NCBI GenBank assembly: GCA_964417965.1
Contig: CAYQJX010000014.1
Span: 50-64,049 of the forward strand
Direction: 5' to 3'
DNA from: an uncultured Elusimicrobiaceae bacterium
Lineage (GTDB): Bacteria > Elusimicrobiota > Elusimicrobia > Elusimicrobiales > UBA9959
Length of the DNA stretch: 64,000 nucleotides
The position numbers were made by a program, and so were the translations under genes. Positions 8,992 through 63,457 of the stretch are shown here, in pieces. The notes beneath the pieces were generated by a model, which did not search any database, was not told the origin of the DNA, and saw only the letters and a program-made list of their open reading frames with translations. Numbering within the stretch: position 1 is the stretch's first letter; every line of letters begins with the position of its first letter.

Positions 8992-10850
8992 CGGAGTTCC
9001 TTCTCCAGCAGCTCTATGAGCAGGGAATATTTTTTAGCCAGGTCGCGCGCGCCTTCGGCCTCGGCGGCGGCCGGCGAGAAATGGCGCAGCTCCAGGGCGG
9101 ACCAGAGGTCTTTGATCTCCTCCAGCGCGCCGGCGCTGGCGCGCGGGAAGCGGGCCTTTATCAGGTCCGTCGCTTTCCGGATGGTGAGCGCGCTCACCTT
9201 GACGCCGCACTTGTCGGACAGGTAGGCCATGTAGGAGTCGTAAAGGGTGGAGACGGCCTCGTTATGCTTGCCGGCCTTGATCAGGACTTCCGTCTCGTCT
9301 ATGTCCCGGGCGGCCTCGCTGCGGGCCCGGCGGAACCTGAACAGCAGCGGGTTGGCGAGCTTGAAGCGGTTCATCCTGGCCAGCAGGAACGACACGGCCA
9401 GCAGCGCCGCGGGCACGGCGTGCGACCAGTAAGGCAGCGAGTTGACCTGGCCCGCCACGAAGGGCAGGGCGTCCCCGCCCTTGCGCTCGCTGACGTAGCG
9501 GATATCCGAGTCCGACTGGGTGACGGCGGAGCCTCCGGCGTTGGCCGGGGTGAAATTGAGGCTCTTGCCGGCCGGCGCGCCCTTTTCCACTGTCAGCGTA
9601 ACCGCGTCGGTGGCCAGTTCTTTATAGGAGCCGGAGCGCGGGTCGAAGAAAGCGAATTTCACCGGCGGCACGGTCTTGCGGCCCTCGGCGCGCGGCACCA
9701 GGATATAAGTGAAGGTCTTCTTGCCGCTGATCACGTCCCCGTCCTTGCGGATGTCGAGGGAGCTCATGGTGTCGAAGACTTTAAAGTCGGCCAGGTCGGG
9801 CAGCTTGGGGGCGGTGACGGCTTTCAGGTTGCCGCTGCCGGTGATGGTGACGGAAAAATTGACGGCCTCCCCGGTGCGCGCCTCGGACCGGTCGGCCGAG
9901 GCCAGCACCGAGTAGCTGCCTACCGCCCCGCCGAAAGAGGCCGGGGCCCCGGCGGGCAGCGGCTTGATGTCGATGCTGAGGGGCTCGGTGGAAAAATCCC
10001 TGCTCTGGCCCTGCGCCCCGCTCATGGACATGAACTTCTGGAAGAAGTTGGGGTCGAACGGGTCTATCTGGTCGTCGGCCGGCACCTGGGCGATGACGGT
10101 GGCGGACTTGATCTCGGCCGGGCCCGGGGTCAGCGCGAACATGGCCGCCTTGATCTCGCTGTAGGCGTAGCGCACGCCGTTGATGTCGGTCTCGCCGTTG
10201 CGCACCGGCGGCAGGTCCTCGGAGATGAGGTTCTTGAAGGCCGGCGGCACGTACTGCGGGTTGGAGGAGAGCGGCACCGAGGTGTAGAACTTTATGCTGA
10301 CGTTTATCTGCTCGCCGGGGTAGGCCGACTTCCGGTCGGTCTCGGCCTTAATGAAGATGGGCACGCGGTCGGCGCCGCCGGCGGCCTGCCTGCGGGCGGC
10401 CGGGCGCGCGGCCTGCGCCGGGCGCGACGCGGGCTGCGCCGGAGCGGCCTGCGCGGCTTTCGCCTTGGTGACGGTCACCTGGATCTCGGACGTTACGGCC
10501 TTCTCCTTGCCGTTGAAGACGGAGATGGCGGGGATGGTCTGGGCGCCGATAAAGCGCGGGGTCAGGATAAAGGTGAAAGAGACCGAGGTGGTGATCTTGC
10601 CGTTGATGATGGAGATGCTCTGGCTGCGCCCGGAGGAATAGACGTTGAAATTCTGCATGTTCGGCAGCTTCGGTTCGGGGACGTTGGCCGAATCGCCGGA
10701 GACGGTCACGGAGAGGTAAAGGTTGCCGTCTATCTCCACCGTGTTGCGGTCGGTTTCCGCCGTTACGGCCAGGTACGCGGCCGCCGGGGCGGCCAGCAGC
10801 AGCGCCAGCGCCAGGGCGGCTAAAAATTTTGACGGGCGGGAGACTGTCAC
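8988..10850 (-). CDS. batD: BatD-like oxygen-tolerance protein
   Basis: 620 aa with a signal peptide, repeated Ig-like segments, a late TM helix and a helical tail. Position between batB/C and batE fits the known operon order. Confidence 0.65.
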   Translation of the reverse strand: MTVSRPSKFLAALALALLLAAPAAAYLAVTAETDRNTVEIDGNLYLSVTVSGDSANVPEPKLPNMQNFNVYSSGRSQSISIINGKITTSVSFTFILTPRFIGAQTIPAISVFNGKEKAVTSEIQVTVTKAKAAQAAPAQPASRPAQAARPAARRQAAGGADRVPIFIKAETDRKSAYPGEQINVSIKFYTSVPLSSNPQYVPPAFKNLISEDLPPVRNGETDINGVRYAYSEIKAAMFALTPGPAEIKSATVIAQVPADDQIDPFDPNFFQKFMSMSGAQGQSRDFSTEPLSIDIKPLPAGAPASFGGAVGSYSVLASADRSEARTGEAVNFSVTITGSGNLKAVTAPKLPDLADFKVFDTMSSLDIRKDGDVISGKKTFTYILVPRAEGRKTVPPVKFAFFDPRSGSYKELATDAVTLTVEKGAPAGKSLNFTPANAGGSAVTQSDSDIRYVSERKGGDALPFVAGQVNSLPYWSHAVPAALLAVSFLLARMNRFKLANPLLFRFRRARSEAARDIDETEVLIKAGKHNEAVSTLYDSYMAYLSDKCGVKVSALTIRKATDLIKARFPRASAGALEEIKDLWSALELRHFSPAAAEAEGARDLAKKYSLLIELLEKELR

Positions 10851-28763: not shown

Positions 28764-28837
28764 TGGAGCGGGTGATGGGAATCGAACCCACGTCTAATGC
28801 TTGGGAAGCACTCGTTCTACCATTGAACTACACCCGC
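28764..28837 (-). tRNA. tRNA-Gly (anticodon CCC), CCA encoded
   Basis: The 74-nt minus-strand sequence GCGGGTG-TA-GTTC-AATGGTA-GAAC-G-AGTGC-TTCCCAA-GCATT-AGAC-GTGGG-TTCGATT-CCCAT-CACCCGC-T-CCA folds as a cloverleaf. Confidence 0.9.
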
Positions 28838-57953: not shown

Positions 57954-59033
57954 TTATTTCTTTACTAAAACTGTCTGCGTCGGGTAAGCCAGCTCGGCCC
58001 CGGCGGCGTGCAGGCCTTCCAGGACGCCCAGCAGGGTCTTCTCGTGGGCGGCCATATAGGCGTTGTAGTCCGGCTCGGTGAGGTAGTACACGGTCTCGAA
58101 TTCCAGCGCGTAGTCGCCGCAGTTGAAAAGGTTGCAGCGGTCGAACTCGGCCTTGGGCACGCCCTGTACCGCCTTTTTCATGAGCGCCGGTATCTTTTTT
58201 AGTATCTCCGGGCTGGTGCCGTAGACGATGCCGGTCTTGAAGACGACGCGGCGCTTGGTGAGGTCCTTGTAGTTGCGGATGCGCGAGCCCAGCAGGTTGG
58301 AATTGGAGACTACCACCATCTCGCCGGAGATGCTGCGGATGCGGGTGGACTTCAGGCCCACGTGCTCTATGGTGCCGGAGACGGCGTCGGAGACTATGAA
58401 GTCGCCTATGGCGAACGGTTTGTCGAGCAGGATGACGAAGAAGTTGAACAGGTCGCCGAGGATGGCCTGCGCGGCGAGGGCCACGGCGACGCCGCCGATG
58501 CCGAGGCCGGTGAGGACGGCGGAGATGTTGACGCCCAGGTTGTCGAGCACGAACAGGACGGCGGCGACCCAGACGAGGGTGCGCAGGATGACCTGGGTGC
58601 TCTTGACCACGGAGTTCTTGGCCTGGCCGTCGAGCTCGCGGCCGGCGGCGACCTTGTTGATCCAGTAGGTGAGCAGGTCCTGGGCGATGGTGATGGCGCG
58701 GTAGGTGAAGACCACCAGTAGGAGGACCTTGAAGGCTTTGTCGAAGGCCGCGCCGCGCTGCAGGTAGCGGGTGGCCACGAAGAGGGCGACGAGCTGGTAC
58801 TCGAACCAGCGGAACTTCTCTATGAGGGCGATGACGAGGTCGTCGAGGTCCGTCTCCGTCTTAAGGGCCAGGGCCTTGAGCCGGTTGATGCCGATGTTCT
58901 TTACGATATAGAGCAGAGCGAGCGCGGCGCAGAACGCCGCCAGCGCCAGCCCGTAGCCGGTGGGCGTATTCCCCAGTATAAGCGTAGTGTCAGCCCAGTT
59001 GGAAAAAGCCCCGCTATTAAAAGCTATGTTCAT
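57954..59033 (-). CDS. MscS-family mechanosensitive channel
   Basis: 359 aa with N-terminal TM helices. The pore-helix/beta-domain signature GIGGVAVALAAQ...PF.IGD.I...G.V...G...T.IR. Confidence 0.85.
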   Translation of the reverse strand: MNIAFNSGAFSNWADTTLILGNTPTGYGLALAAFCAALALLYIVKNIGINRLKALALKTETDLDDLVIALIEKFRWFEYQLVALFVATRYLQRGAAFDKAFKVLLLVVFTYRAITIAQDLLTYWINKVAAGRELDGQAKNSVVKSTQVILRTLVWVAAVLFVLDNLGVNISAVLTGLGIGGVAVALAAQAILGDLFNFFVILLDKPFAIGDFIVSDAVSGTIEHVGLKSTRIRSISGEMVVVSNSNLLGSRIRNYKDLTKRRVVFKTGIVYGTSPEILKKIPALMKKAVQGVPKAEFDRCNLFNCGDYALEFETVYYLTEPDYNAYMAAHEKTLLGVLEGLHAAGAELAYPTQTVLVKK

Positions 59034-59039
59034 CCCCTA

Positions 59040-59045
59040 ATTATA
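59040..59045 (-). promoter_or_regulatory. -10 box TATAAT placed 6 nt before the ATG
   Basis: The sense strand reads TTTTT-TATAAT-TAGGGG-ATG(59033). Confidence 0.45.
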
Positions 59046-59172: not shown

Positions 59173-59309
59173 GCGGCCTGGCAAGGGTATGGGTTCGGCG
59201 GGCCCTCCCGGAGCCCCGAGCTTGCGTAAGCGCGAGGGGCGAGGGAGGAGGGGCGGGCACGGTGTGTCCCGACCCCGTGCCCGACGGGCCCATACCCTTG
59301 CCAGGCCGC
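59173..59309. repeat. Structured ~140-nt intergenic element, copy B
   Basis: Perfect 21-bp outer stem: gcggcctggcaagggtatggg (59173-59193) pairs with cccatacccttgccaggccgc (59289-59309). Inner gcttgcgtaagc hairpin and gggcacggtgtg motif lie in the same order as copy A. Confidence 0.75.
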
Positions 59310-59323
59310 GGAGCGGGTATAAA

Positions 59324-59353
59324 CAAAAAAGCCGGCTTGGGGGCCGGCTTCTT
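59324..59353 (-). terminator. Rho-independent terminator after the pilin-like cassette
   Basis: The agccggc/gccggct hairpin is followed on the minus strand by T6. Confidence 0.65.
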
Positions 59354-59371
59354 TGTGGCAGGGGTTACTGG

Positions 59372-59407
59372 TTACTTGTAGTGGCGGCGGAGTTTGGCTT
59401 TGTCCAC
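59372..59407 (-). pseudogene. Orphan 3' fragment of the nuoI-like gene
   Basis: Encodes VDKAKLRRHYK-stop. This matches the last 10 of the 11 codons at the end of the intact gene at 60875 (TDKAKLRRHYK-stop). Confidence 0.75.
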
Positions 59408-59433
59408 CTGGGCGGGCCGCAAATTCTTTGCCT

Positions 59434-60300
59434 CTACCCGGGGAGGACCGTCACGGAATCGAACTCCGCTCTGGTGCTGTCCCACGTTCGCAGTCCGGCG
59501 CTGCCGGAGGTGAAGGTGGAATCAGTGAGGGTCAGCATTTTCACTCCGTCCACGTAGATGGTCTGCGCGCTGCCGGATACGGTTATCTGTATCTGGTGCT
59601 GGGTATTGTAAATAGGGAATCCGGCCGGGATCTTTGTGACCGCGATCGGGGAACTTTCGGTCCCGTTCACCACCTTTCTTACGAGGAAAGCCCCGCCGCT
59701 GCCCCAGCCTGGGTCGTACTGGAAACAATAGCCGCTGATGGCGCTTTTGCCGTCGGCCCGGTAATACACGCCATAACCGCTGCCGGTGGTTAAATTGGCG
59801 TTAAGAGATATCGAGTAATCTGTCCATGTGTCGTCTCCGAAAGAAAGGCGAGACTCCATGGAGGCTAAGCTTTGAAGGATACCGCCTGCCGTTACCCATT
59901 TTCCTGAAAGGACTTTAAGCATGCTCATGGAACTGAAATCCGAACTAAAGAGCGGGGTGGGGCCGCTGGGGTTGGAGAAAGGCCAGTAGTGGACGCTGCA
60001 GCCGACGATAGCCGCGGAGGTGGAAACCCAGACGTAAGTGCCGCCCGCCGTACAATAAGGGCTCCTGTCTATGTATTTGCTGTCTTTGAGCTCTTCAATG
60101 GAGGCGGCGGGGGTGTTGTTGTGTTCTATGCGGTAGCGCATTTCAGCGCTCTGTATCTCCTGGCGGTTGGCGTCGCATTGCGCTGTTTTTGATTTGGCTA
60201 TGGCAGTGCGTATTCTTGGGATGGCGGAAGTGGCAAGGATGGAAGCTATCGCTACCGTTACCATAAGCTCCATGAGCATGAAAGCCGGCCTGCGGTTCAT
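59434..60300 (-). CDS. Prepilin-type N-terminal domain protein fused to a LamG/DUF1080-like lectin domain
   Basis: The N-terminus MNRRPA-FMLMELMVTVAIASILA is a class III signal with Glu at +5. The C-terminal ~170 aa have a jelly-roll pattern (GKW...W.DY......GYGVYYRA...GYCFQYDPG). Confidence 0.7.
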   Translation of the reverse strand: MNRRPAFMLMELMVTVAIASILATSAIPRIRTAIAKSKTAQCDANRQEIQSAEMRYRIEHNNTPAASIEELKDSKYIDRSPYCTAGGTYVWVSTSAAIVGCSVHYWPFSNPSGPTPLFSSDFSSMSMLKVLSGKWVTAGGILQSLASMESRLSFGDDTWTDYSISLNANLTTGSGYGVYYRADGKSAISGYCFQYDPGWGSGGAFLVRKVVNGTESSPIAVTKIPAGFPIYNTQHQIQITVSGSAQTIYVDGVKMLTLTDSTFTSGSAGLRTWDSTRAEFDSVTVLPG

Positions 60301-60749
60301 TTGTCCCTCCTTGCTGCCACGCCTTTGTCCGGGGAGAAATAAAGCGCGGTTAAGCCGTGCTTTTCAGGAGAAGGACACTGAATCGTCTGTCCTTCTGCTT
60401 TGTAGGGGAGGCCGGAAACCGGGCAGGCCCCGGCCTTTCCCGAGGCCCCCGCCGCCTTCCAGAGGGCCGCTATACATTTTTCCGTGCCGCCGTCGGTGTC
60501 GTAAACGCCGAAACGCACCTGTCTCTCCGGCTGGAGGGCGCTCTTCAGTTCGGGAAAGGCGGAGTAAACGGATACTGCGGCTGCGGCTATTATGGCCAGC
60601 TGGGCTGTCAGTACCAGACGCGGGTGCCGTTTTAAAAACGGGACCCGGGCCACAGGGAGGGCCGCGGGCGGCTTCGCCGCCTGCTCCTTTGCCTGTGTCT
60701 CCAGGAATTCCCGGAGTTCATCCATGGGTTCTTTGTCTTTCTCGTCCAT
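60297..60749 (-). CDS. Small membrane-anchored hypothetical protein with four Cys
   Basis: 150 aa with a GGGAGGG Shine-Dalgarno and one TM helix. 4-nt overlap (ATGA) with the pilin-like gene. Confidence 0.45.
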   Translation of the reverse strand: MDEKDKEPMDELREFLETQAKEQAAKPPAALPVARVPFLKRHPRLVLTAQLAIIAAAAVSVYSAFPELKSALQPERQVRFGVYDTDGGTEKCIAALWKAAGASGKAGACPVSGLPYKAEGQTIQCPSPEKHGLTALYFSPDKGVAARRDK

Positions 60750-60824
60750 AAATATGCGGTCCCTCCCGCGCCCGGCGCCAGGCTACATTCTAATATATTC
60801 CCCCCCGGTTCGGGAGAGCTGCCG

Positions 60825-60860
60825 CAAAAAAGCCGGCTTGGGGGCCGGCTTTTTTGTTTG
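60825..60860 (-). terminator. Rho-independent terminator after the hydrogenase operon
   Basis: The same hairpin as at 59324, flanked by an A6 run and T6GTTT. Confidence 0.65.
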
Positions 60861-60916
60861 GTTTGGAATTCCGCTTATTTGTAGTGGCGGCGGAGTTTGG
60901 CTTTGTCGGTCTGGGC
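60825..60916. repeat. Direct repeat, copy 2 (native terminator and 3' end of the 4Fe-4S gene)
   Basis: See copy 1. The two copies start 1501 bp apart. Confidence 0.85.
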
Positions 60917-61276
60917 CAGTTCGTAGTCCTGGGTCATGATCAGGGCCTTCTTGGGGCAGATCTCTACGCACTGGGCGCAGTACACGCAGTGGTCGAGCTT
61001 CATGATGCAGTCGAACTTCTTCTTGGCCGCCACGGCGGGCTGGCCTTCCACCTGGGCCGGCGCCGGCGGCTGGTGCTCGTCGAGCGGTATCTCTATGGCC
61101 TTCGACGGGCAGACGCGCACGCACATCTGGCAGCCTATGCACTTCGACGAGTCGAAGTCTATGCGGCCGCGGAAATTAGGGAAGATGTGGGCCTTTTCAA
61201 AAGGATAGGCGATCGTGGCCGGCTTCTTGAAAAGGTGCTTTATAACTTCGCTGAAGACTCTTGCGGGTTTTTTCAT
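60875..61276 (-). CDS. 2x[4Fe-4S] ferredoxin subunit (NuoI/EchF/HycF-like)
   Basis: Two CxxCxxCxxxCP motifs (CIGCQMCVRVCP; CVYCAQCVEICP) separated by a Pro/Ala-rich insert. Confidence 0.8.
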   Translation of the reverse strand: MKKPARVFSEVIKHLFKKPATIAYPFEKAHIFPNFRGRIDFDSSKCIGCQMCVRVCPSKAIEIPLDEHQPPAPAQVEGQPAVAAKKKFDCIMKLDHCVYCAQCVEICPKKALIMTQDYELAQTDKAKLRRHYK

Positions 61277-62263: not shown

Positions 62264-63457
62264 TTAAAGCCTGGTGAAATCGACGCCGCGGCGCTTGTAC
62301 TGCTCTATGCTCAGCTTGCGCAGGTCTTCCCAGCTGTACACCTCGGTCTTGCCCTTTTTGGGGTTCCAGACCGCGGCGCGGTCCGTGCAGGACATGCACG
62401 GGTCTATGGCCGCTATCACCAGCGGCACGTCGGCCAGCCAGCCGCCTTCCAGCATGTACTGCACGCTCTGCAGGTTGGCCAGGGTTGGGGCGCGCACCTT
62501 CAGGCGCTCGGGCTTGTCGGTGCCGTTGGACTTAAGGTAATGGATGTCTTCGCCGCGGGGCGCCTCGTAATGGTTGACGCACTCGCCGGGGGCGATGCGC
62601 ATGTTCACCTTCACGGCGATCGGGCCTTCGGGCAGGTCGTTAAGCACCTGCTTGATCATCTTGTAGGACTCTACCAGCTCCAGCGCGCGCACGACCAGGC
62701 GGCCGAACACGTCGTTGGTGTTGTGCGTGATGAGCTTGAAGTCGAGCTCGTTGTAGATCAGGTAGGGCTCGTCCTTGCGCACGTCGCGGGCCAGGCCGGA
62801 GGCGCGGGCGGTGGGCCCCACGGCGCCGCGCTCTATGGCCACGTCCAGCGGCAGCTTGCCCACGTTGGCGGTCCGGGCGGCCACGGTGGGCTCCTCGAGG
62901 GCCAGCTTGATGTAATAGTTGGTGCGCTCGATGAGGTAGTTGATGCGCTGCACCACGCCGGCTTTCTGCTCCGGGGTGATGTCGCGGCGCACGCCGCCTA
63001 TGGTGTTGATGGAATAGTGCACGCGGTTGCCAGAGAGCATCTCCAGGCAGTCCAGCACCTGCTCGCGGTCGCGCCAGGTGTACATGAACAGCGTTTCGAA
63101 GCCCATCTCGTAGCCGGCCACGCCCAGCCACAGCAGGTGGCTGTGCACGCGCTCCAGCTCGGCGAAGAGCGTGCGGATGGCAAGGGCCCGCTTGGGGGTC
63201 TCGCACTTGGCCAGCTCTTCCACGTTGGTGATGTAGGTGGTGGTGTGGGAGTGGGAGCAGATGCCGCAGACGCGCTCGATGAGGTAGAGGTTCTGGAGGT
63301 AGGTGCGGCCTTCGGCGGCCTTCTCCATGCCGCGGTGGTTATAGCCGAGGTTCACGGTGGCGCCGGAGATCTGCTCGCCTTCGAGCACGAGCATGAAGTT
63401 CTCGGGCTCCTTCAGGGCGGGGTGCTGGGGGCCCAGCGGGATGGTTATCTTGGACAT
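62264..63457 (-). CDS. Group 4 [NiFe]-hydrogenase large subunit (EchE/HycE/NuoD-like)
   Basis: 397 aa. Retains both metal-ligand motifs: RVCGICSHSH (Cys64/Cys67) and DPCMSCTDR (Cys354/Cys357). 37 residues follow the second motif. Confidence 0.8.
   Translation of the reverse strand: MSKITIPLGPQHPALKEPENFMLVLEGEQISGATVNLGYNHRGMEKAAEGRTYLQNLYLIERVCGICSHSHTTTYITNVEELAKCETPKRALAIRTLFAELERVHSHLLWLGVAGYEMGFETLFMYTWRDREQVLDCLEMLSGNRVHYSINTIGGVRRDITPEQKAGVVQRINYLIERTNYYIKLALEEPTVAARTANVGKLPLDVAIERGAVGPTARASGLARDVRKDEPYLIYNELDFKLITHNTNDVFGRLVVRALELVESYKMIKQVLNDLPEGPIAVKVNMRIAPGECVNHYEAPRGEDIHYLKSNGTDKPERLKVRAPTLANLQSVQYMLEGGWLADVPLVIAAIDPCMSCTDRAAVWNPKKGKTEVYSWEDLRKLSIEQYKRRGVDFTRL

Follow-up and report, generated by a model that had tools for sequence, protein, structure and literature searches.

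The question raised by this locus is how the end of a hydrogenase gene, together with its terminator, came to stand on both sides of two genes that are unrelated to it. The window, that is, the whole stretch of 64,000 nucleotides analysed from an uncultured Elusimicrobiaceae bacterium, had been read in the original prediction as carrying a two-gene cassette, left when a circular or duplicated segment entered the hydrogenase operon by recombination at its 3' end and terminator. The features on which the argument depends are the following, from the upstream to the downstream side of the operon end:

60875..61276, minus strand: nuoI-like 2x[4Fe-4S] subunit (Pfam Fer4_7, 3.5e-14), last gene of an operon assigned to group 4 [NiFe] hydrogenases (Mbh/Mrp-type)
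60825..60916 (92 nt), minus strand: native repeat copy, with coding part 60875-60916, spacer A 60856-60874, terminator hairpin and U-tract 60825-60855
60750..60824, minus strand: leader, a promoter-like region brought in by the module; AT-rich box (GAATATATTAGAATG) at ~60786-60799, read from the sequence
60297..60749, minus strand: 150-aa single-pass membrane protein with a C...CPxS...CPxPxxHGL motif, upstream partner of the pilin-lectin gene
59434..60300, minus strand: 288-aa prepilin-like protein with a CBM66/concanavalin-like beta-sandwich domain (profile matches, AF2 model, Foldseek)
59414..59433 (20 nt), minus strand: non-homologous joint linking the stop of the 288-aa gene to the orphan nuoI fragment (8 natural gene ends aligned)
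59324..59413 (90 nt), minus strand: lower repeat copy, with orphan nuoI 3' fragment 59372-59413, spacer B 59355-59371, hairpin 59324-59354
59324..60824 (1501 bp), minus strand: inserted segment relative to the empty site (blastn against the relative L004), one of several permutations
59173..59309, minus strand: long hairpin marking the resident downstream flank (inverted repeat, 91.9% identical to L004 8465-8636)
57954..59033, minus strand: MscS-family channel gene (Pfam MS_channel_2nd, 9e-17), ancestral downstream neighbour of nuoI

The nuoI-like protein also matched NuoI/HycF-like models of NCBIfam, all below cutoff. In the translation of the 397-aa hydrogenase large subunit (62264-63457), the Ni-Fe ligand motifs CGIC...DPCMSC were found within ERVCGICSHSH and IDPCMSCTDR, and the protein matched NiFeSe_Hases and Complex1_49kDa of Pfam. 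Judged by these ligand motifs and by the neighbouring subunit genes, the operon belongs to the group 4 membrane-bound [NiFe] hydrogenases.

As had been described, the gene end, made up of the final 13 codons with their stop, a spacer and a terminator hairpin, was present twice in direct orientation, at 60825-60916 and 59324-59413, with perfectly identical blocks of 27 and 29 nt around a diverged spacer. Read on the coding strand, the native copy (60916 to 60825) consists of 42 coding nt including the stop (AQTDKAKLRRHYK and stop), the 19-nt spacer A and a 31-nt terminator, and the lower copy (59413 to 59324) of 42 coding nt including the stop (AQVDKAKLRRHYK and stop), the 17-nt spacer B (CCAGTAACCCCTGCCAC) and a 31-nt terminator. 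The copies start 1501 bp apart when measured at the terminator end and 1503 bp apart at the gene end, because the spacer holds a 2-nt indel. The identical blocks lie at 59376-59404 and 60879-60907 (29 nt) and at 59324-59350 and 60825-60851 (27 nt). Neither block has a third occurrence in the 64 kb, even with up to 3 mismatches allowed, 100 shuffles gave no match, and a looser regular expression for the hairpin also detected no further copy in the window. The copies differed at 4 of 42 coding positions, three of which fall within a single codon, at about 9-10 of 19 plus the 2-nt indel in the spacer and at 1 of 31 in the terminator, an uneven distribution that was significant (Fisher p = 5e-4). 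Both terminators form a perfect G+C stem followed by a U-tract (U6), with folding energies of -22.2 kcal/mol for the native and -22.5 kcal/mol for the lower copy, and neither shows attC-type core sites or bulges. At the other end of the lower copy, the homology of the orphan to nuoI starts abruptly at GCCCAG (59413), the preceding 20 nt being unrelated to nuoI in an alignment with 8 natural gene ends.

The copies bracket two translationally coupled genes on the minus strand, for proteins of 150 and 288 aa, which overlap by 4 nt (ATGA), as originally reported. The G+C content of the insert was 0.535-0.59, compared with 0.60-0.66 in its flanks. The earlier remark that such a repeat is not the target-site duplication of a transposase held: it is 90 nt long and inexact, and a search of the insert for the hallmarks of a transposon or insertion sequence (a transposase, terminal inverted repeats, an exact duplication of 2-14 bp) detected no transposase and no terminal inverted repeats besides the hairpins.

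As the sequence derives from a metagenome, and both alleles of the gene end are known from related strains in similar environments (Rifle data sets), the assembler could have made a chimera by fusing two co-occurring strains at the repeat. Against this, two assemblies made with different software span both copies at 100% identity, one of them being the Logan assembly of run SRR8863431 (L002, 2660 nt), which matches window positions 61911-59252 throughout. Moreover, such a chimera is barely credible because the exact blocks are below 31 nt, with 29 nt at most and shorter than the k-mers, and because the joint between the pilin gene and the orphan has no common sequence upstream.

The empty site whose existence had been anticipated was found in the closest relative, L004 (GWB2_63_22), which is 95.9% identical at the nucleotide level over the 3.2 kb from nuoD to nuoI. 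In this genome, nuoI is followed by one terminator, the same long hairpin and the MscS gene, without insert. The close strains L093 and L094 are also devoid of the cassette, MscS lying a few hundred bases past a single terminator, and L093 holds a diverged version of the long hairpin. By blastn, window positions 64000-60825 correspond to L004 5281-8450 and positions 59413-59139 to L004 8361-8636, so this relative is collinear with the window on either side of the 1501-bp insert and, by comparison with it, 0 nt were deleted and 90 nt duplicated. For the window itself, the empty site would read nuoI, spacer A, terminator and then TTTATACCCGC. The limits given for the insert are one permutation of several, since the crossover could lie anywhere inside either identical block.

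A wider comparison gave the same picture. In 27 of 27 related species, nuoI ends in LRRHYK and a stop codon, followed by a variable spacer of 17-25 nt, and in 23 of the 27 the next element is a GAAGCCGGC-loop-GCCGGCTTC hairpin. A second nuoI gene end was found in none of the 27 loci by self-blast and a six-frame regular expression for RHYK and stop; a second hairpin of this type was present in L021 only, as the ordinary terminator of a 727-aa gene. The MscS gene is the neighbour of nuoI in most relatives, with an interval that varies from ~65 bp to 7 kb among species and is very variable in content, and the long hairpin (fold z = -7.96) occupies the same position, after the single nuoI terminator, in other relatives. 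A scan of the window with Rfam at the gathering threshold returned one tRNA and nothing else. The divergence of MscS from that of L004 (75% aa identity) was considered as a possible recombination tract continuous with the cassette and rejected, as the tract starts ~680 nt downstream and is specific to L004, the window and L093 being ~96-97% identical there.

These comparisons also bear on the opposite polarity, in which an ancestral cassette would have been excised in the relatives through recombination of its flanking repeats. A precise deletion between 90-bp direct repeats is indeed feasible and would leave a single copy as in L004, but the cassette is absent at this site from all 27 related species and from the close strains, the gene pair sits elsewhere in other genomes, one MAG combines the pair with an empty nuoI-MscS site, and the terminator loop of L004 (TAAAC) is not derivable from either copy in the window. 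Loss of an ancestral cassette is thus very improbable.

The origin of the second copy was sought in its alleles. The native coding part is identical to that of L004 (42/42), whereas the orphan coding part matches L004 at 38/42 and is identical (42/42) to the intact nuoI of L092, a Rifle sister strain; its distinguishing alleles are a GTG Val codon, also present in L010 and L026, and an AAG Lys codon. Of the 19 positions of spacer A, 14 agree with the L004 spacer, and spacer B resembles that of a third strain, L098, at ~13 of 17 positions when aligned by eye. On these sequence matches, the repeat copies are different natural alleles of the nuoI gene end and not copies of each other, which indicates that the duplication arose by recombination between strains. 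The terminators are the exception, as both share the loop CCCCAA, found in none of the relatives, and a TTTTTT 3' arm that is found elsewhere only in L092 and L093, where the loop is CCAAA. Thus, either donor and recipient were identical in this part, or a later gene conversion homogenised the copies.

The common loop and U-tract variant could also point to a recent common ancestry of the two terminators, as expected if the gene end had been duplicated in situ on insertion of the module, for instance by fill-in of a long staggered break or by replication template switching at the hairpin, with subsequent drift or gene conversion of the spacer. This explanation is improbable. The differences are strongly clustered, three adjacent substitutions recreate a natural GTG Val codon, the orphan equals the L092 allele at every position and spacer B resembles that of L098; random drift would not converge on natural alleles, whereas recombination with DNA of another strain predicts copies that are allelic.

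Therefore, the repeats are best explained as the scar of one recombinational insertion, and the likeliest route, which we hold with middling confidence, is a Campbell-type integration in which a circularised fragment of ~1.5 kb entered by a single crossover within an identical block. After the lineage had split from its closest sampled relative, it would have received ~1.5 kb of DNA from a sister strain, comprising the two-gene pilin-like module with its own leader and, from the donor nuoI, the last 40 nt with the spacer and terminator that follow them. The ends of this linear fragment, one at nuoI codon 120 and the other 20 nt beyond the stop of the pilin gene, would have joined to form a circle, and the closing joint would be the non-homologous junction 59413/59414. 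The predicted circle junction reads spacer B, terminator and CGGCAGCTCTCC..., with ...TTTGCGGCCC/GCCCAGGTG intact. One RecA-type crossover, in either of the blocks that are identical in donor and recipient (27 nt in the terminator, 29 nt in the coding part), would then integrate the circle and duplicate the homologous segment, so that the insert becomes flanked by one copy per allele. As a result, nuoI would stay intact, the module would gain a terminator, and the downstream hairpin and MscS would be left untouched.

In agreement with a Campbell scar, the flanking duplication is single-copy at the empty site (L004, L093 and the 27 species) and its copies are alleles. The original proposal of a circular or duplicated segment is supported to this extent, the insertion itself being evident from the empty site and the allelic copies, whereas the circle and the position of the crossover are what we infer from them. 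The likeness to known Campbell-type integrations lies in the direct duplication of the homologous segment, the reciprocal donor and recipient copies, the intact target gene and the lack of a dedicated recombinase. It counts against this route that ~90 nt of homology, with exact runs of 29 nt at most, is close to the minimum that RecA-dependent crossover requires. A precedent is provided by Escherichia coli, in which linearised, partly degraded and re-circularised molecules were integrated by single crossover, duplicating 109-950 bp of the locus (PMC3240628). The present case differs from these in its homology of ~90 nt with exact runs of 27-29 nt, and in that it concerns a natural event in an uncultivated bacterium whose circle and donor are reconstructed. 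Also counting against it, the expected donor arrangement (nuoI, terminator and gene pair, without orphan) was found in none of the sampled genomes, the nearest homologue of the 288-aa protein is only 69% identical, and the loop and 3' arm common to both terminators call for one of the two added assumptions given above.

An unlikely alternative is homology-facilitated illegitimate recombination of a linear fragment, in which incoming DNA anchored in the operon had its free right end joined illegitimately in codon 120 of the recipient nuoI. The incoming molecule would have carried the hydrogenase operon through nuoI (T allele), spacer A, the terminator, the module and 20 nt, and the recipient gene end, of the V allele, would have been left as the orphan; the illegitimate join would lie ~90 nt upstream of the place where the anchor homology ends. 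Such an event gives exactly the observed order and accounts for the non-homologous joint 59413/59414, for the continuity of the orphan with resident downstream DNA and for the copies being two alleles. It has moreover been proposed as the origin of the orphaned 3'-end strings in T6SS, Rhs and CDI loci (PMC5361080). However, although one homologous and one illegitimate junction were found, there was no deletion of recipient DNA near the anchor by comparison with L004, whereas in the reported events recipient DNA was deleted and not duplicated, the classical form of the process having given deletions in E. coli (PMC3240628). In addition, L004-like DNA flanks the insert on both sides, which is simpler if the foreign part is the 1.5 kb only. 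The resemblance to the T6SS, Rhs and CDI loci consists of a displaced, non-functional gene end downstream of new genes and of the pairing of a homologous with an illegitimate junction, and there too the ends are alleles from different strains within one genome and not a duplication (PMC5361080). Those loci, by contrast, form arrays through repeated displacement under diversifying selection, whereas here a single event left an orphan of only 13 codons, and the genes gained have no relation to the target.

The two inserted genes correspond to the earlier descriptions of a Cys-containing membrane protein and of a prepilin-like N-terminus fused to a lectin-fold domain, now supported by profiles, the AF2 model, Foldseek and alignment. 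The 150-aa protein had no match in Pfam or NCBIfam, and a word-indexed search returned only the protein itself; its homologues were reached through synteny alone, as the gene that immediately precedes the pilin-like one in L084, L085, L088, L089 and L090. In the family alignment, C92, C109, C125 and H131 are invariant. The N-terminus of the 288-aa protein, MNRRPA/FMLMELMVTVAIASILA, carries F and E at +1 and +5 and Ala at -1; in a type IV pilin, a short basic leader ends in Gly (-1) and is followed by Phe (+1), Glu (+5) and a hydrophobic helix of ~20 residues. Its N_methyl and ComGC/PilA/GspG matches were below cutoff, with 16 bits for PF07963 (cutoff 21.2) and 31 bits for ComGC NF040999 (cutoff 75), as was that to PF06439 (DUF1080; 1.6e-5, 25.4 bits, cutoff 26.8). 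The AF2 model consists of a helix (5-59) and a beta-sandwich (118-287) with pLDDT ~90, and the top Foldseek match was CBM66 4b1m (E = 5e-13, TM-target 0.83, rmsd 1.9 A over 162 columns). On this model, the C-terminal domain has a CBM66 or concanavalin-like lectin fold, and sugar binding is putative. The closest homologue is 69% identical, and PF07963 is combined with PF06439 in many database homologues. With the prepilin-type DUF1080/CBM66-like proteins the 288-aa protein shares a hydrophobic helix like a class III signal, Glu at +5 and the C-terminal beta-sandwich, but it differs in having Ala instead of Gly at -1 and in being always paired with the small membrane partner with the Cys/His motif.

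The pair is a conserved module of the Elusimicrobia, found in at least 4 other genomic contexts, where it is accompanied by no nuoI fragment and no flanking repeats. It adjoins genes for a CoA-transferase and lysine fermentation in L084 and L086, a radical-SAM gene in L088 and L089 and a T2SS-ATPase response regulator in L090, and has yet another context in L085; in L084-L087 it ends in its own, different terminator. The MAG that carries both the pair and an unoccupied nuoI-MscS site is JBFXJL, in which they lie on contigs 1 and 5, respectively. A tblastx comparison of the context contigs with the window gave little besides noise. The leader region (60750..60824) is a candidate promoter, as the homologous pairs of L084 and L085 are preceded, at a distance of 45-55 nt, by TATAAT boxes comparable to its AT-rich box. 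A sigma-70 scan made no call for this box.

The presence of the module in at least 5 different contexts across the phylum, the variable nuoI-MscS interval and the two near-identical hairpins that bound the insert in direct orientation could be taken as the marks of a mobile cassette that uses the terminator hairpin as a site for a recombinase encoded elsewhere. This is highly improbable, as the 64 kb contain just two such hairpins, the inserts of other species at the nuoI-MscS site lack duplicated gene ends, the module elsewhere lacks flanking repeats and in L084-L087 has a different terminator, and the duplication reaches 60 nt past the hairpin into coding sequence; nor were attC features found in the hairpin, or relatives of the insert among the viral contigs scanned. 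No tyrosine or serine recombinase gene is present in the 1501-bp insert, which encodes only the 150-aa and 288-aa proteins. Integrative elements at gene 3' ends likewise produce direct repeats of the 3' end, an intact gene and an orphan at the far end of the insert; here, in contrast, there is no integrase, the insert is of 1.5 kb only, and the repeats are allelic, with a diverged middle and no identical core. Integron gene cassettes are similar in being small units of one or two genes bounded by hairpin-forming sequences, but the present hairpin is an ordinary intrinsic terminator, there is neither an array nor an attC imperfect repeat with its core sites, the unit brings a leader and promoter-like box of its own, the repeat reaches into coding sequence, and the two proteins of the insert hold no recombinase domain.

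Ongoing mobility of the segment is not supported, because there is no recombinase in the insert, no other cassette bounded by this hairpin in the window, no different cassette between duplicated gene ends in any relative and no empty-site variant of the same strain in the public assemblies queried. Population heterogeneity had been named earlier as a sign of mobility, and look-ups of the exact NuoI, 288-aa and MscS proteins in public assemblies gave contigs of the same arrangement only. It is a speculative and very doubtful reading that the GAAGCCGGC-loop-GCCGGCTTC terminator hairpin of nuoI is a preferred entry point for small promoter-bearing modules in the Elusimicrobia, where circularised fragments could be captured, for instance, through breaks induced by the hairpin or through template switching. 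If that were true, the highly variable nuoI-MscS interval would serve as a cassette slot that needs no recombinase, and the window would be its first example caught in the act.

The answer to the initial question is that a two-gene pilin-like module was inserted after the hydrogenase operon in one lineage of the Elusimicrobia, leaving an ordinary one-off scar and not a new mobile element; neither a new kind of element nor a new mechanism is revealed. The locus offers a natural case, in an uncultivated phylum, of a small gene module that moved between strains without mobile-element machinery, and since the allele of the donor and that of the recipient both survive in the repeats, the course of the event can be retraced with nearly single-base precision. 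The comparison further delimits a conserved but uncharacterised gene pair of the Elusimicrobia, a lectin-tipped pilin-like protein with a Cys/His membrane partner, the genomic address of which differs between lineages.

All genes of the repeat region are carried on the minus strand, and the locus is arranged as follows (window positions):

60875-61276, minus strand: nuoI-like gene, with the C-terminal end ...AQTDKAKLRRHYK and stop
60825-60916, minus strand: native repeat copy; after the nuoI stop, a 19-nt spacer and the hairpin AAAAAAGCCGGC-CCCCAA-GCCGGCTTTTTTG
60297-60749, minus strand: 150-aa gene, between the repeat copies
59434-60300, minus strand: 288-aa gene, between the repeat copies
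59324-59413, minus strand: lower (orphan) copy, 1.5 kb downstream; 13 codons and stop (AQVDKAKLRRHYK), a 17-nt spacer and AAAGAAGCCGGC-CCCCAA-GCCGGCTTTTTTG
59173-59309, minus strand: long hairpin element of 137 nt, with the nuoI terminator on one side and the MscS promoter region on the other

As the original prediction had stated, the gene end and terminator were found twice in direct orientation, bracketing exactly two genes coupled by an ATGA overlap. The copies share exact blocks of 29 and 27 nt; each block used as a query gave only two matches within the 64 kb, with up to three mismatches allowed, and no match in shuffled sequence (0/100 shuffles). Both hairpins fold at about -22 kcal/mol with U6 directly after each, and are strong, intrinsic-terminator-like structures. 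An independent Logan assembly (run SRR8863431) was 100% identical over window 61911-59252, spanning both copies, and therefore an assembly artefact is an unlikely source of the structure. The window sequence is also contained in a 126-kb ENA contig (ERZ27284381:k139_675306).

Both Ni-Fe ligand motifs, CGIC and DPCMSC, are present in the large subunit encoded in the upstream operon, whose gene is flanked on either side by those of Mrp-like and Nuo-like subunits; judged by sequence, the operon truly encodes a group 4 [NiFe] hydrogenase, with the nuoI-like ferredoxin subunit as last gene. A scan of species-representative genomes recovered 28 Elusimicrobia loci with the same operon, 27 of them distinct from the window lineage. 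In all 27 relatives nuoI ended in ...RHYK, or in closely similar residues, and stop; the spacer after the stop varied (17-25 nt) and led, in 23/27, into a hairpin GAAGCCGGC-loop-GCCGGCTTC. Far from being common to all relatives, the arrangement with a second nuoI gene end was found in 0/27.

The empty site was present in the closest relative, Elusimicrobia bacterium GWB2_63_22 (locus L004; 95.9% nucleotide identity over 3.2 kb, NuoI 98% at the amino acid level), with the order nuoI, single terminator, 137-nt long hairpin element, MscS. Window 64000-60825 corresponds to L004 5281-8450, so that the match runs to the native terminator, and it restarts at the lower copy (59413-59139, L004 8361-8636); therefore, the insert is exactly 1501 bp. 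Both flanks of the insert were L004-like in a sliding three-way comparison. MscS also lies a few hundred bases past nuoI in close strains sampled at Rifle, from sediment and groundwater (L093, L094, L098). Between species, nuoI and MscS were about 65 bp to about 7 kb apart, with a mixture of unrelated genes inside, and no duplicated gene end was found bracketing these other inserts. The interval (L004-L031) is a variable region whose gene content differs by lineage: a 386-aa protein (MNFxFLSPHFPPNYR...) recurs directly upstream of MscS in several lineages, a 727-aa protein occurs in L013, L021 and L022, and MscS is missing from the nuoI neighbourhood in several species.

Differences between the two copies were unevenly distributed (Fisher p = 5e-4), with 4/42 coding positions (three in one codon), about half of the spacer positions plus a 2-nt indel, and 1/31 terminator positions. 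The native coding part was identical to L004 (42/42; spacer 14/19), and the orphan coding part differed from L004 at four positions and was identical to the end of the intact nuoI of the Rifle sister strain P0132/L092 (...AQVDKAKLRRHYK, 42/42). The orphan shares its GTG Val codon with L010 and L026 and its AAAGAAG stem arm with L092 and L093, and its spacer is similar to the one in L098 (about 13/17 by eye). An in-place duplicate followed by random drift was disfavoured, because drift would not recreate natural alleles; from this comparison, the copies must derive from two different strains' versions of one locus. Two features common to both window terminators point the other way: the CCCCAA loop, found in no relative (nearest CCAAA, in L092 and L093), and the TTTTTT 3' arm, which occurs elsewhere only in L092/L093. 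Either donor and recipient would have been the same in this part, as needed for a homologous crossover, or the hairpins may have been homogenised later.

The locus is quite probably the scar of a single recombination between strains, made without dedicated machinery. For the route, we give about an even chance to a Campbell-type integration, in which one crossover between the chromosome and a circle with a homologous segment would produce exactly the observed architecture, the insert lying between direct duplicates that are reciprocal donor/recipient versions; the window insert likewise lies between two such versions of one segment. The circle would be a contiguous donor piece that starts with the last 40 nt of nuoI and runs through the spacer, the terminator and the leader to the 150-aa gene, then the 288-aa gene and a final 20 nt, with the pair already behind the nuoI terminator in the donor, and would have closed at a non-homologous joint, today 59413/59414. 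The crossover could have fallen in either exact block, and natural haplotypes fit both positions: in L098, ACC (Thr) occurs together with AAG-TAA and a spacer like the orphan's, and in L010, GTG (Val) occurs together with AAA-TAA. Single-crossover integration has been obtained in E. coli from molecules that had been linearised, partly degraded and then re-circularised, with 109-950 bp of target duplicated (PMC3240628). Homology-facilitated illegitimate recombination (HFIR) with the illegitimate joint upstream of the anchor end would yield the same product, and has been invoked for orphaned 3' ends at T6SS, Rhs and CDI loci (PMC5361080), to which the orphan nuoI end is comparable; however, true HFIR in E. 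coli was rarer than single-crossover integration and deleted recipient DNA (PMC3240628), and we consider this main rival unlikely, with the remaining explanations well below both. The proposal that a circular or duplicated segment had recombined into the hydrogenase 3' end agrees with the 1501-bp insert relative to L004 and with the two-allele copies; the original prediction was correct in observation and interpretation.

Readings as a mobile element were rejected. The duplication, 90 nt and inexact, is too long for a target-site duplication, as anticipated, and transposase is absent, against a transposon footprint; the insert encodes only the 150-aa and 288-aa proteins, against an integrase-borne element. 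Against an integron cassette, the hairpin is an ordinary terminator, the repeat reaches 60 nt into coding sequence, and an array is absent; other cassettes bounded by the same hairpin, suggested as a further search, did not appear in the 64-kb window, which holds only the two copies. Phage association was discarded after a viral-contig scan found no relatives. In exact-match searches with NuoI, MscS and the 288-aa protein, every contig returned had the same arrangement, so that present-day mobility was not indicated.

Homologues of the 288-aa protein at 45-69% identity occur in other Elusimicrobia. The 150-aa-type gene lay directly upstream of the pilin-like gene in 5/7 retrieved contexts (L084, L085, L088-L090), always so where fully assembled and mostly with a 4-nt overlap; the L086 and L087 contigs hold only its 3' end. 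At least four other genomic contexts were found: between a 298-aa gene and CoA-transferase/lysine-fermentation genes (L084, L086), adjoining a radical-SAM gene (L088, L089), adjoining a T2SS-ATPase response regulator (L090), and a separate one (L085). In L084-L087 the pair is followed by a different terminator of its own (AAAAATCCGGC...GCCGGATTTTT), the following gene in L088 and L089 begins about 20 nt past the stop of the pair, and no nuoI fragment was found at these loci. In the metagenome-assembled genome JBFXJL the pair lies on contig 1 (L084), and the nuoI-MscS interval, on contig 5 (L024), is unoccupied. These several contexts, and the JBFXJL pair lying away from the unoccupied site, indicate that the pair existed as a module before this insertion, at sites that differ from lineage to lineage. 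Its G+C in the window is lower than in the flanks, and about 75 nt of upstream DNA came along, with an AT-rich TAGAAT box resembling the TATAAT boxes upstream of homologous pairs; this putative promoter was not called in a sigma-70 scan.

The 288-aa protein, proposed as a prepilin-lectin fusion, does have a prepilin-like N-terminus (MNRRPA|FMLME..., Glu at +5), with N_methyl, ComGC, PilA and GspG matches each below cutoff, and a C-terminal domain weakly matching PF06439. Its AlphaFold model combines a long helix at the N-terminus with a confidently modelled beta-sandwich, for which the best superposition was with CBM66, a fructan-binding module (4b1m, E = 5e-13, TM-target 0.83), ahead of other lectins. 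The predicted cleavage site has Ala at -1 (canonical Gly), and the RRPAF motif is also present in the closest homologues. The 150-aa protein, described as a Cys-containing membrane protein, has a single membrane helix and an invariant C...CPxS...CPxPxxHGL motif; it gave no family match, a word-indexed search found no relatives, and it defines an unannotated family (window 60297-60749; L084:5489-5944; L085:1223-1678; L089:517-975; L088:42-500; L090:3040-3494). Members have an acidic N-terminus and invariant Cys92, Cys109, Cys125 and His131, and the Cys/His positions could be a putative metal-binding site.

Downstream, the long hairpin has 31-nt outer arms, 90% complementary, and keeps its position in many Elusimicrobia relatives (L004:8465-8636; L030:8486-8597; L025:8502-8648; L093:about 2385-2560). 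It folds as RNA at -105.5 kcal/mol (z = -7.96), and the RNAalifold consensus of seven sequences has 22 pairs, of which 11 show compensatory double changes, with GCGCTTACGCAAGC conserved at the centre. It had no Rfam match, the sole gathering-level match in the window being a tRNA gene unrelated to the cassette (28767-28837, minus strand, 72 bits), and may act either as RNA, as a small RNA or leader, or as a REP/MITE-like palindrome at the DNA level. Within the MscS gene (57954-59033), a tract of about 750 nt (window about 58000-58750) was 61-79% identical to L004 (about 9300-10050) and about 96-97% identical to the more distant L093, with window-L004 identity back to 93-95% on either side; it is apparently a separate recombination mosaic, in L004, not contiguous with the cassette. 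A conserved GGGGGAAATxTTTTATAATTA box lies only about 5-10 nt before the MscS start (window 57954-59040, L009, L014, L019, L026), and this -10-like TATAAT almost at the ATG points to a 5' leader that is very short or missing.

After the insertion, nuoI would keep an intact end and its own terminator, and the conserved long hairpin and MscS promoter-proximal region would be unaltered; transcription of the inserted pair probably starts in the leader that came with it and ends at the orphan hairpin. The locus is a well-resolved but ordinary recombination scar, a fresh example of a type of event already known.
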